A stretch of 63,892 bases of DNA, counting the filler, from Reclinomonas americana ATCC 50394 (Eukaryota), in the NCBI GenBank assembly GCA_048213135.1. It is 6 parts of 2 records of this genome, joined end to end, with 100 filler letters (N's around TTAATTAATTAA, not from the genome) between each part and the next. Parts side by side here need not be neighbours in the genome. Positions count along the whole stretch, not along the records: positions 11,463 to 38,151 come from PS015108.1; positions 38,252 to 44,919 come from PS015108.1; positions 45,020 to 50,411 come from PS015108.1; positions 50,512 to 61,995 come from PS015108.1; 2 more parts are not named here. One strand, 5' to 3'. Under the pieces are notes generated by a model. That model was given only the letters and a program-made list of their open reading frames with translations. It was not told the DNA's origin and did not search any database. Position numbers and translations under genes: made by a program. Of the stretch, positions 30,201 through 60,655 are shown one piece after another (positions within the stretch are counted from its first letter, which is position 1; every line of letters starts with the position of its first letter).

Positions 30201-32823
30201 TCACTCAACTAGGAACACTTCGTAGTCTGCTACTTCAAATTTCTCTGTTCCCAGCAGCGTTGTATTGTCATACGATCCGCCGCCGGTACTCGAATAATGA
30301 GAAGCATCGCAGCAGCTGTTGCTGTTGCTGTTGCAGCTGTCGGACAAGTAAACATCATTGCCGAACCGTGCTCCATATTTAGAGTTGTGAGCAACTGCAA
30401 AATTTTTGCAGTCGTCCTTCAGCGTGAATTGTCGCGCACTTACACCGCTCCGTGATGCTGAGAACAAGAAGCTGGTGCCAGATGGATCGCTGACATACAC
30501 ACCTGGGCAGCGCGACTGCCACGGCACAGGGGTGTACCCACCACACACTCGTCCCGTGGACGACTTGACCACAGTCAGCGTCGGTCTGCGCGCAGTCACT
30601 CGTTAATAAGCCACTGAACAAAACAAGCTGACTCTCCTTCCGCACATCACTCACCCACGATTGTCACATCGCTGATGGAATGTGGCTCCTGCAAACCCAT
30701 CCCGAGTGCCCTTGAAAAGCAACGTCAGCTTGGGCACAGCAGCACTGCCGCCTCGCGCTTGCTGCACCCACTGCAGAACCACACGTCCGTCTGCCATACT
30801 CAGCAGCTTGCTCTTCTGTATCTCCGCTCGCTCGCGCGCCTCTCGTTCCTTCGCCTCGCGCTCCCGTTCCTCCCGCTCTCTGGCATGTCGCTCACGCTCT
30901 TCCTGCTCTCTGGCTTGCCGCTCACGCGCAGCTGCCTCTCGTTCCTGGATCGCTCGTTCACGCATCTCCAGTGGTCCGAGACGGGCGAGCAGCTGCAGAT
31001 CAACAACAGACAAGATGAGAGAGGAGAGGTGAGATGCACTCGGACAAGCCACCGATGTTCACACAACAGACCTCCGCAACACCCTTTTCGAGAGCTTCGC
31101 GCATCCGCCGCTCTGCAGCAAGTTGTTCATCAGTTGCATGTCTTGCTTGTTGCTCAGCAGCCAGTCGCTCATTGGTCGTTCGCTGTTCGCGAGACAACCG
31201 TTCCTCAGCAGCTTGCCTCGACTCTCGTTCACGAGCCACCATCTGAGTGAGCTCTCGCACTCGGTCATGAAGCTGTGATGCACACCGAAGTCACATCAGC
31301 TGCATGAGTGACCAGCAACATCCACTGACCTTCAGTCGAAACTCACCTCTCGCAGTGGTCGCTCCACTCGCAACACATCACACACTCGCTCATGCTCCTC
31401 CCTGTCACCACCAATTCCACGCCATCCACACCCCAATTCACCACCTCGACACACTGCGTGCTGCAGTCGGCACTCCGTTTCTGCCACGAGACAACACGTC
31501 AGCATCATGACACATGCACTCTCCATCAAGCTCACTAACCAAGATGCCTCTGCATATCAGCCAGTGAACACTGTTGCTGACATCCACGCGGACACGCTCG
31601 CATGCACCCACTCCAGCTGTGCTCTGCAATCTCACTGTGTGCCATCCGAGTTCCACATCCCAGTGGACACTCGCGCAAGCACCCACTCCACGCATGCTCC
31701 ACAGTGCAATCGAGTGTTATTTGCTGTCCACATCTCTCACATGCATACGGGCACTGCGATGGGCCATGTGTGCGGTAGTAGTCGCCCACCGTCTGCTCAT
31801 CCATGGTGAGGGGAGAGAGAAACCAAGACAAACAACTCTCATTGACAACACGAACCATGGGTGCGTGGCACAGCGGGCATGTGATCTGTGGTGCCTCCTC
31901 ACGTCAATCATTAGCGACTTCACCCCACTAAACAAGCACACCCAACCTTCACATTGCGGTATGTCAGCTGTATCTTTGGCAGAGCATGGTGCAAAGTGGC
32001 CAGGGATGTGACTCCATCGCCACACAGATCCGATCCAGCCTCCGTCACATGCTCACTGTCGCATGCAATCAACAGAGAGAGAAGGAAGTCAGCGCATAGG
32101 TTGCTCTCTCTGTCTCTCTGTCTCTCTCTCTCTCTCTCTCCCTTCACACACTCACCGACACAAATAATGCAGCCCACTGGCACACAACACGAAATCCGGA
32201 GCACACAGATCCTGCAACAGAGAGAAGAGAAGAGAGTGAGCATCATCAGTGCTCTCTCTCTCTCTCTCTCCCTCTCTCTCTCACACACTCTCTTCAAACA
32301 CTCACCAAGCACACTGGGCACAGATACTCGTCCGCCAACACTCGTGACTCCTCCGCCACATTCTCCATCCACAATCGCGGTGGCTGTGCATTCATCTCTT
32401 CCTTCTCCCCCTCCTCTACTGGACGACGACGACGTACAGCGCGCACCACACAAAACACATGTTGTTCCTCACTGTCGTCGTCACCAGTGAGTGCATTCCT
32501 CACTCGCATCACGTGCTTCTCGAGAACAATCTGACTGTCATCGGCAGCAGCAGCAGCAGCAGCAGCAGGAGAAGGAGGAGGGGCATATCCACTGCCTTCT
32601 CCACCACCACTGCCTTCCACGTGCGCGTCTTCGATCTCCATTATAATAAATGCTGGCGTGTCCTGCCAGAGATTGTGATTTCTCGTCGGAACGGTTTGCG
32701 GAGGGGTACCAGACAATCTGCCAACGCGACTGCCACCGGCTCCGCTTCTTCCTCGTGCTTGGCGCGCTCGTCCATCCCTCTTTCTCTGCGGTCATTATCA
32801 ACACTTCCATCGTCATCCTTCAT
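30201..32823 (-). CDS. TRAF-like RING / TRAF Zn-finger / coiled-coil / TLDc protein, copy 1 (alternative start 32641)
   Basis: YLCPVCL|DLC..LCASGLHYLCREH..LCGD (RING-like), repeated CPxGC..H..C fingers, E/R coiled coil, LLFKGTRDGF..FHQRCD..TLTVVKS..GGYT..SFLFS..FG..DYEVF (TLDc). Confidence 0.85.
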
Positions 32824-33417
32824 CAGCTGCCCTCACACGCAGGATACACAGGAATTGCTGTTCAGACCACATGAATTCGAAGAATTATGCTCATCGCCTG
32901 TGAAAACCCTGCATCAACAACAACGCCACCAGTCAGTACCTCTCCTTCTCTCTCCCCACCCCATCACCGCCACGCAACTCTGATTCTGAGAACAACTCCC
33001 AGTTTTCTGGTAAAACAAACGAAGACAGCCGCGTCGCCACATCGCCATTCTCGCGATCGCGAGCCGAGGGAACGATTGATCCAGGCGGCCCCAAACAGCG
33101 TCGAGAGTGGCGATGGTCTCTGCGAGTCGACCTGCATTGGACTCGGTTCGCTGTCGGCACTGCCGTTGTCGGCATTTTTTTCCAGACGACTCGGGAGTGG
33201 CACTTGTCGCTGCTGCCCACTGCGTCGGTGGTCATGCATCGGGTGTTGTTGATGGATCCGCCGACGTGACGCTGGCGAGCGGAGGTCATTGAGCAGGCCG
33301 AGGCCACCGTCTGCAAGACGTTCCTGCGATGAAAAACTGATGAGAAACACAAAGGTGGAAGCCTGTGATGCACAGACACAGACGCTAGCTAATACACTCT
33401 ACCTTGGTTGTATTGCT

Positions 33418-59223: not shown

Positions 59224-60067
59224 NNNNNNNNNNNNNNNNNNNNNNNNNNNNNNNNNNNNNNNNNNNNNNNNNNNNNNNNNNNNNNNNNNNNNNNNNNNNN
59301 NNNNNNNNNNNNNNNNNNNNNNNNNNNNNNNNNNNNNNNNNNNNNNNNNNNNNNNNNNNNNNNNNNNNNNNNNNNNNNNNNNNNNNNNNNNNNNNNNNNN
59401 NNNNNNNNNNNNNNNNNNNNNNNNNNNNNNNNNNNNNNNNNNNNNNNNNNNNNNNNNNNNNNNNNNNNNNNNNNNNNNNNNNNNNNNNNNNNNNNNNNNN
59501 NNNNNNNNNNNNNNNNNNNNNNNNNNNNNNNNNNNNNNNNNNNNNNNNNNNNNNNNNNNNNNNNNNNNNNNNNNNNNNNNNNNNNNNNNNNNNNNNNNNN
59601 NNNNNNNNNNNNNNNNNNNNNNNNNNNNNNNNNNNNNNNNNNNNNNNNNNNNNNNNNNNNNNNNNNNNNNNNNNNNNNNNNNNNNNNNNNNNNNNNNNNN
59701 NNNNNNNNNNNNNNNNNNNNNNNNNNNNNNNNNNNNNNNNNNNNNNNNNNNNNNNNNNNNNNNNNNNNNNNNNNNNNNNNNNNGCGACCGATGCACCGCG
59801 TGGAGAGATGCAGCTCCATGATGGAAAGCACCTCGAAGAAGTGTCAAAGGCAGAGACGCGTTGCAGTGCGTCGCGAGAACGCGGATCGATGAGATATATA
59901 TCGAAGTTGAAGCTGCCTGTGTATCCAGCGTGTGAGGGCAGCTGAGAAGGAAGGAGATGAAGGGTGCCAATGGTTACCACTGAGAAGCAGACGTGAATGA
60001 GCACGAGGAAGAAGCAAGCTCTGTCCCGACAATCTGACGTGACGGGACATCATGAAACATTGTGTGA

Positions 60068-60655
60068 ATGGGTTTCGAAGACGCACACGTTGGAGGCAGT
60101 GGTGGAGAAGGCAGTGGATCTGCTCTTCTTCCTCCTCCTCCTGCTTCAGAGGATGACAGTCAGATTGCTCTCGAGCACACTGTGTGTCGTGGTGGTGAAC
60201 TGGGGTGTGGATGGCGTGGTGTTGGTGGGGAGAAGGAGGAACACGAGCGAGTGTGTGATGTGTTGCGAGTTGAACGACCACTGCGAGAGGTGAGTTTGGA
60301 ATGATGGGCACTGGTCGATGCATGCAGCTGATGTGGCTCGTGATTTGCGTGCACAGCTGCATGGTCGAGTTCAAGAGCTGTCTCAGATGGTGGCTGAGAG
60401 CAGGGAGCAGGTGGCACAGGAGAGGGAGGCGAGACAAGCGTTCGAGGAACGACTTCAGCTGACAGATGAGCGACTGGCCGCTGAACAACAAGCGAGACAA
60501 GCAACAGATGTACAACTTGCTGCAGAGCGGCGGATGAGAGAAGCTCTCGAGCGAGGTGTTGCTGAGGTGAATGCTGATGGCTTTTGGTTGCATCGCCCTT
60601 CTCGTCACTCGGTGTGTCATTGATGTGCAGCTGCTCGCCCGTCTCGAGCCGCTGG
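60068..60655 (+). CDS. TLDc family copy 5, N-terminal half lacking the RING and most Zn fingers (contig probably inverted)
   Basis: MGFEDAH...SQIALE fused directly to HTVCRGGELG; ends LLARLEPL at the gap. Confidence 0.75.

Follow-up and report, generated by a model that had tools for sequence, protein, structure and literature searches.

What do the genes of a small tandem family in the protist Reclinomonas americana encode, if the domain that closes their products is a TLDc domain and everything ahead of it is laid out like a TRAF protein? We have addressed this question for a stretch of 63,892 bases from strain ATCC 50394 (assembly GCA_048213135.1), the whole of which we refer to as the window. 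As the original prediction had stated, the window carries five paralogues on two scaffolds, copies A, B and C at 11463-38151 and copy D and a fifth copy at 50512-61995. Their layout is TRAF-like: a Cys/His motif lies at the position of a RING, followed by five CCHC (Cys-Cys-His-Cys) fingers, a long helical region and a C-terminal TLDc domain in the place of MATH. The family is real, lineage-specific and selectively maintained, with full-length proteins of about 615 amino acids, and we would give about an even chance to the reading that these proteins act as a ubiquitin-ligase scaffold in the style of TRAF and TRIM proteins, with TLDc as the binding end and with a natural RING-less paralogue.

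The copies were located by BLAST of the exons of copy D against the window, together with inspection of every exon boundary, and the splice junctions, like expression, are deduced from sequence alone. The four copies that keep the full layout, the exons of copy D and the two short spacers are as follows.

30201..32641, minus strand, copy A: complete nine-exon gene of 613 amino acids with RING-like motif, five CCHC fingers, helical region and TLDc; spliced open reading frame intact
33418..35831, minus strand, copy B: exon 2 inside the N gap at 35394-35515
35832..35991, minus strand, spacer of 160 bp from the stop of C to the ATG of B
35992..38080, minus strand, copy C: exon 1 past the scaffold end at 38151
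37320-37647, minus strand, exon 5 of copy C: a 75-nt duplication gives a sixth CCHC finger
55780..58277, minus strand, copy D: complete, nine exons, 623 amino acids, from three-frame reading and the spliced open reading frame
57996-58277, 57860-57915, 57603-57711, 57504-57533 and 57187-57439, minus strand, exons 1-5 of copy D
56986-57119, 56640-56924, 56230-56567 and 55780-56164, minus strand, exons 6-9 of copy D
58278..58409, minus strand, spacer of 132 bp from the stop of the fifth copy to the ATG of D

Copies A, B and C are arranged head-to-tail on the minus strand of their scaffold (11463-38151). Exon boundaries are identical in copies A to D, in agreement with the common exon structure claimed earlier; every splice site that could be read is canonical (GT at 30 donors, AG at 31 acceptors), the introns measure 57-148 nt, and the exon 6 donor of copy B is displaced by 2 nt with the frame kept. 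Splicing as predicted leaves A and D with uninterrupted open reading frames, as it does the readable parts of B and C, and no internal stop is present in any copy. A tblastn search of the window with the spliced D protein found no copy beyond the five. The stop-to-ATG spacer between A and B is 776 bp long; the 160-bp and 132-bp spacers are homologous, and because these two short spacers are 78% identical over 140 aligned columns, gene and spacer were duplicated as a unit.

We note that spacers of 160 and 132 bp leave little room for a 3' untranslated region, a promoter and a 5' untranslated region, and that such tight spacing may be a sign of trans-splicing or of polycistronic transcription. 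An element of about 45-100 nt is conserved (74-89% identity between its occurrences) and lies upstream of A (32808-32867), upstream of the start of the fifth copy (59914-60011) and also downstream of A, where no gene copy follows (29926-30037); it may belong to a promoter, or be what is left of a copy since lost. N-terminal myristoylation was considered and dropped: copy A begins M-E, and the other copies have Phe after Gly, which the consensus excludes.

The modules of copy D, taken in the order of the protein, are these.

57672..58010, minus strand, RING-like motif C-x2-C-x10-C-x4-H-x2-C-x2-H-x8-C-x-D: amino acids 90-126, split over exons 1-3
57019..57527, minus strand, finger array: five CCHC units, C-x2-6-C-x11-12-H-x3-4-C, amino acids 152-277, exons 4-6
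56388..56924, minus strand, helical region: amino acids 289-443, exon 7 rich in Q, E, R, A and L and the start of exon 8 rich in E and R
55783..56387, minus strand, TLDc domain: amino acids 444-623, end of exon 8 and exon 9, Pfam TLD E=6e-13

The assignment of the C-terminal domain to TLDc is safe, and the original prediction was right on this point. Scored on exon 9 alone, with the first quarter of the domain encoded by exon 8, the Pfam TLD model (PF07534; cut-off 24.5 bits) gives 52.3 bits for copy A (E=8.5e-14) and 49.5 bits for copy D. MATH matched no exon of A or D (Pfam, E<=1 or E<=10), and zf-B_box matched no exon tested. A profile built from the five copies and ten relatives reached ten PDB sequences at E<=0.1, all ten of them TLDc proteins: four mEAK-7 (best 7u8o_U, E=8.8e-10), Skywalker, zebrafish OXR2 and four NCOA7. 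All copies keep the glycine motifs D-G-F, G-G-Y and F-G.

Searching with a profile of the five TLDc exons returned 12 relatives. Six of the 12 were examined with Pfam: P0012 carries BTB_2 and two TLD matches, P0015 BACK and TLD, and P0022 (from Barthelona sp. PCE) B-box and TLD, P0013 and P0014 have coiled-coil-like N-termini ahead of TLD, and P0016 has TLD alone. Judged by these domain matches, the relatives show a TLDc subfamily that recurs C-terminal to putative oligomerising modules associated with ubiquitin ligases (E3 enzymes), and the earlier suggestion that TLDc serves here as a recognition module fits relatives in which it stands behind BTB, BACK and B-box scaffolds. When ten relatives were included in a tree, the TLDc domains of all five copies grouped together as one long-branched clade (support 91/99), a lineage-specific grouping consistent with the lineage expansion that had been proposed. 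A word-indexed protein search with the D finger exon and the D TLDc exon gave no match, and neither the TLDc alignment nor the finger alignment detected a relative when metagenomes were scanned.

The fingers are more divergent. Copies A, B, C, D and the fifth copy contain 5, 5, 6, 5 and 1 CCHC units, respectively; 2000 shuffles of D contained 0.04 units on average, and none of them reached five. The intron between exons 5 and 6 of copy B happens to be open and in frame, and this stretch was used as a finger query. With it, phmmer found ten matches at E<=0.001 among 1.84 billion protein representatives: five carry Pfam zf-TRAF, one carries RING and Sina_ZnF, another is related to a match that has zf-TRAF, and three, which are unrelated tandem-repeat proteins that have no CCHC units, were set aside. 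Of P0002 and P0010, the top-scoring match is a tandem-repeat protein with repeats of about 65 residues, a false friend that arises from 13 repeated weak matches. When the family profile was aligned by hhalign with four of the zf-TRAF-positive matches, the probabilities were 94.5, 95.7, 85.3 and 95.5%, with finger paired to finger and a three-residue gap in each linker of the copies. The invariant columns of an 11-sequence finger alignment are the zinc ligands. In local alignments of the linker and first finger, none of 500 shuffles scored as high as P0009, and 5 of 500 scored as high as P0003. When relatives were searched against the PDB, P0007 was swamped by its own ankyrin repeats and P0006 reached TRAF4 at E=0.0043. 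AlphaFold2 on the finger exon, from a 4-sequence alignment, gave a mean predicted local distance difference test score of 38, which is unusable, and a single 17-residue match (L001) from a viral contig scan with the finger alignment was dismissed as too short. We conclude that the fingers are divergent, compact TRAF-type fingers, kin of Pfam zf-TRAF and below its membership threshold.

The RING-like motif was found, by regular expression on the spliced proteins, in both copies that are readable throughout, at amino acids 90-126 in D and 108-144 in A. The ligand positions of exons 2 and 3 in copy C are the same as in A and D; exon 2 of copy B is inside the gap. A C-P-L-C pair in exon 4 was considered as the last pair of RING ligands and rejected, since this pair opens the first CCHC finger. 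Windows over the RING-like motif are the most constrained in the gene, with a ratio of nonsynonymous to synonymous divergence (dN/dS) of 0.00-0.12 over amino acids 73-117 and of 0.07-0.12 over amino acids 83-117.

The helical region that follows varies in length, exon 7 encoding 67, 91, 60, 95 and 70 amino acids in A, B, C, D and the fifth copy. Modulo 7 these lengths leave 4 in A, C and D and 0 in B and the fifth copy, a pattern that would suit a heptad constraint, five values being no proof of one.

The fifth copy lies in two pieces.

58410..59223, minus strand, 3' piece: exon 9 and the larger part of exon 8, encoding the E/R-rich helix and TLDc, cut by the N gap 59224-59783
60068..60655, plus strand, 5' piece: part of exon 1 with the start codon, the larger part of exon 6, all of exon 7 and 25 nt from the beginning of exon 8, with an N gap from 60656

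Once the contig between the N gaps is flipped, the two pieces abut base for base within exon 8, as judged against copy A, and the joined copy is an open reading frame of 1194 nt (397 amino acids) with a single terminal stop. The simplest reading is that the fifth copy is one gene whose 5' contig (59784-60655) is inverted in the scaffold. Within it exon 1, at about nucleotide 98, is fused in frame to exon 6, at nucleotide 19; this in-frame deletion removes the RING-like motif together with fingers 1-4 and spares the last finger, the helical region and TLDc. The dN/dS values of this copy against the others are 0.12-0.47, and because of these values we do not regard it as decaying.

The copies are under purifying selection, dN/dS being below 1 across all domains. 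Pairwise values are 0.09-0.16 for the fingers, 0.13-0.45 for the RING region, 0.13-0.23 for the helical region and 0.26-0.43 for TLDc. The sole window with dN/dS above 1 is a gap-rich, low-complexity N-terminal stretch, and positive selection on TLDc was rejected, as no TLDc window exceeds 0.66. Nonsynonymous divergence (dN) is 0.21-0.30 in TLDc versus 0.03-0.06 in the fingers, about five times faster in TLDc. Synonymous divergence (dS) rises from 0.2-0.5 in the 5' half to 0.5-1.1 in the 3' half, and intron identity is 57-89% for introns 1-5 and 51-71% for intron 8. Because both dS and intron divergence are lower in the 5' half than in the 3' half, these data suggest that the 5' module has been homogenised between copies, probably via gene conversion, leaving the 3' end free to diverge.

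How might such a protein work? On the scaffold reading, the helical region, about 155 amino acids long and variable, would bring several chains together; the N-terminal zinc module, if the RING-like motif does bind zinc, would recruit a ubiquitin-conjugating (E2) enzyme or ubiquitin; and TLDc would hold a partner or substrate, for which the only precedent is the vacuolar-type ATPase (V-ATPase). The fifth copy might then be a natural ligase-less partner that co-assembles with full-length forms and modulates them. Ligase activity of the RING-like motif is putative, and targeting of V-ATPase or phagosomes, which the original prediction had raised, would follow from the name of the domain only. 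What that prediction had observed was essentially right, and its interpretation was a reasonable extrapolation in which ligase, target and immune role are inferred.

A number of our results weigh against the scaffold reading. The RING consensus is C-x2-C-x9-39-C-x1-3-H-x2-3-[CH]-x2-C-x4-48-C-x2-C, with eight zinc ligands. A canonical RING regular expression matches none of the five spliced proteins, and the motif departs from the consensus in the x4 spacing between ligands 3 and 4, in a His at ligand 6 and in its C-x-D end. Its coding sequence is distributed over three exons, and the introns between them contain stops. Local comparison showed no similarity above shuffles to the Pfam-verified RING of P0004 (78 of 500 shuffles as high) or to the RING-like region of P0022 (263 of 500 as high). 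The motif string reported earlier is thus exact in A and D, whereas the label RING fails the canonical consensus and is putative. The fingers give a similar picture: Pfam zf-TRAF (PF02176) stays below its cut-off on exon 5 of D (E=1.3, 10.2 versus 27 bits) and does not match the exon 5-intron-exon 6 stretch of copy B, and PDB searches with a single sequence or with the family profile match no TRAF. The claim of tandem TRAF-type fingers therefore stands as five CCHC units with remote zf-TRAF kinship (hhalign 85-96%), although the direct Pfam test failed. The helical region shows a weak heptad pattern: its 3.5-residue signal is modest, and in the best register hydrophobic residues fill 44-53% of the a/d positions, compared with 33-36% as background. 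Charged residues (E, R, K and D) make up 60-63% of the 60 residues with which exon 8 begins, and 12 E-to-R/K pairs at i+4 occur among them; this stretch resembles a single charged helix more than it does a coiled coil. Of the predicted coiled coil, then, the long helical region holds, with little heptad signal and with one highly charged part. A profile of the five copies alone matches no solved TLDc protein (none of the five PDB sequences at E<=1), which suggests that the family is remote from proteins with known V-ATPase binding. Finally, TRAF-type fingers and TLD occur together in none of the 22 relatives (12 for TLDc, 10 for the fingers), weak evidence of rarity given that the searches sample only a sliver of these superfamilies; beyond the window the architecture thus has no orthologue in its support.

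A first alternative is that the proteins are non-catalytic oligomeric adaptors or ubiquitin readers, in which the RING-like motif would be a structural zinc site that recruits no E2, the CCHC fingers would bind ubiquitin or another protein, and the partner bound by TLDc would be bridged to other factors, as in TRAF1 and TRAF-like scaffolds. We regard this as possible, if clearly less probable than a ligase scaffold. The canonical RING pattern is unmet, and the best Pfam match of the finger exon is the ubiquitin-binding zf_UBZ (E=0.0014, 18.6 bits; E=0.022 on the exon 5-intron-exon 6 stretch of copy B), although these matches are sub-threshold, under the Pfam cut-off of 25.6 bits. The RING-less copy, moreover, is kept under constraint, and the C-terminal two thirds of the protein are therefore valuable without the RING-like motif. 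Against an adaptor, the RING-like segment is the most constrained of the gene and sits where TRAF, SIAH and TRIM ligases carry their RING.

A second alternative is that TLDc is itself the effector, the proteins being V-ATPase regulators like Oxr1, NCOA7 and mEAK-7 whose zinc and helical parts only place or dose the domain, for example on membranes. Two papers speak for it: V-ATPase binding is reported for each mammalian and yeast TLDc protein that has been tested (PMC8608904, PMC9263379), including all five mammalian TLDc proteins (PMC8608904), and Eaton et al. 2021 proposed such binding as a common property of the TLDc class (PMC8608904). The same paper further reports that G815, G845 and G896 of Ncoa7 are needed for the interaction with V-ATPase, and that poly-E motifs upstream of TLDc show an enhancing trend that is non-significant (PMC8608904), with which the E/R-rich stretch just upstream of TLDc in the copies may be compared. 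The profile of the wider subfamily is closest to mEAK-7 in V-ATPase-bound structures, whereas the family profile alone reaches no solved TLDc protein. According to the passages cited, mEAK-7's TLDc domain contacts V-ATPase subunits A, B1 and E1, with Gly276 contacting B1 and Pro316/Gln317 contacting A (PMC9263379). Our subfamily-profile alignment covers mEAK-7 residues 244-330, which is partial; in it Gly276 aligns with the invariant glycine of the D-G-F loop of the copies, whereas Pro316/Gln317 align with a loop that is variable among the copies and has indels. This mapping onto contact residues is partial and does not amount to a demonstration of binding, and five diverging copies for one conserved pump would need an extra explanation. 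We consider this alternative unlikely.

Could the family instead be a protist counterpart of the innate-immune ligases of the TRAF and TRIM families? On this proposal TLDc would be a diversifying ligand-binding head, the RING-less copy would serve as a decoy or brake like TRAF1, and the targets would be phagosomes or other V-ATPase-bearing compartments, or else the invaders by which these are disturbed. If true, it would mean that the tandem copies keep a homogenised RING-finger signalling module and differ in finger number, in stalk length and in the surface of TLDc. We think it improbable, and the immune or sensor role that the original prediction had put forward is unsupported by our data, with five copies and dN/dS below 1 in every TLDc window.

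That the copies are functionless, as decaying duplicates or assembly artefacts, is very improbable: local assembly is indeed poor, with N gaps in B, a fifth copy that is split and has one piece on the wrong strand, and C cut at a scaffold end, but no copy has an internal stop, the splice sites are all canonical, dN/dS is well below 1 for every domain and every pair, and the dS of 0.2-1.1 between copies, on which allelic or haplotig duplication was also dropped, is far above that of allelic or assembly duplication.

The window as a whole is a chain of scaffolds with a G+C content of about 55% and many internal N gaps, its parts being joined by separators of the form N44-TTAATTAATTAA-N44.

11363-11462, 38152-38251, 44920-45019, 50412-50511 and 61996-62095: separators

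Microsatellites of the (GA)n/(CT)n and (CA)n types occur in many introns and flank most N gaps (for example at 57740-57850, 32130-32300 and 29113-29280), and they are probably behind the assembly breaks. An open frame at 3119-4063 (plus strand) matches Pfam CCDC47, a PAT complex subunit (E=2.9e-11), and a WD40-repeat exon at 38770-39342 (plus strand; Pfam WD40, E=2.9e-17) is broken by a low-complexity stretch of poly-Ala/Ser. Long open frames of 269-346 amino acids at 46649-49509 (plus strand) have no Pfam match at E<=0.001; on the opposite strand (48765-50322), the frames 48765-49919 and 49720-50322 share a nearly identical start of about 65 residues, a sign of a direct repeat at this place. 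The window was also scanned with Rfam and for tRNAs, and neither scan gave a match.

To our knowledge, TLDc is known almost only as a V-ATPase-binding module in a small number of proteins from animals and yeast. In some protists, however, TLDc genes are very numerous; the genome of Entamoeba invadens, according to a passage of its description, has 210 genes under PF07534, labelled 'unknown function' (PMC4053983). Because TLDc stands, in the copies described here, where a TRAF-like scaffold would bind its substrate, and because relatives linked to BTB, BACK and B-box share this arrangement, we suggest that in microbial eukaryotes TLDc may be a widely used recognition module of ubiquitin-ligase scaffolds. 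If the RING-like motif is active, it would extend the range of RING ligand patterns, and full-length copies beside a naturally RING-less one offer a ready-made contrast.

As far as we have searched the literature, the combination of TRAF-like fingers with TLDc is unreported. A full-text search, whose scope did not extend to domain-architecture databases, found no paper on TLDc joined to RING or to TRAF-type fingers, and the terms "TLDc" and "TRAF-type zinc finger" together returned zero papers, in agreement with the earlier statement that the architecture is uncharacterised. Among solved TLDc proteins, mEAK-7 (TLDC1), NCOA7, OXR1/OXR2 and TBC1D24/Skywalker share the TLDc fold family with the copies; unlike them, as passages of PMC9263379 indicate, these proteins have LysM/GRAM, TBC, or a myristoylated N-terminus with an EF-hand-like domain as N-terminal partners. 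P0012, P0015 and P0022 belong to the same TLDc subfamily (28-40% identity) and likewise stop directly behind a C-terminal TLDc, which in P0022 follows a B-box and a helical region, but their N-terminal module is BTB or a different zinc scaffold, and none has TRAF-type fingers; we found no description of a function for any of the three. In these three proteins TLDc takes the C-terminal place that a substrate-binding domain occupies in CUL3 adaptors and TRIM proteins. The copies differ from TRIM proteins (RING, B-box, coiled coil) in having no B-box, which the TLDc relative P0022 does have.

On the side of the fingers, the protist proteins P0006, P0007, P0008 and P0011, which combine ankyrin repeats with zf-TRAF, are among the closest relatives in 1.84 billion proteins. 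P0009 and P0003, also from protists, join a Cys-rich N-terminus and fingers to pentapeptide repeats and SPRY, and resemble the copies in the linker and first finger. Like the copies, these protist proteins couple an array of fingers to a variable binding module; unlike them, none has TLD, and their identity to the copies is 31-36%. With the TRAF family itself the copies share the order of modules and five CCHC fingers homologous to Pfam-verified zf-TRAF arrays, TRAF2, 3, 5 and 6 having five fingers as well. They differ from it in ending in TLDc, in fingers that fall under the Pfam zf-TRAF cut-off and have linkers three residues shorter, and in a RING-like motif with x4 spacing, a His as ligand 6 and a C-x-D end; solved TRAFs are not matched by sequence. 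TRAF7, which has a RING, TRAF-type fingers and a coiled coil followed by WD40 in the place of MATH/TRAF-C, offers the closest parallel to this last step, MATH being exchanged for another fold in both cases, for WD40 in TRAF7 and for TLDc in the copies of R. americana.

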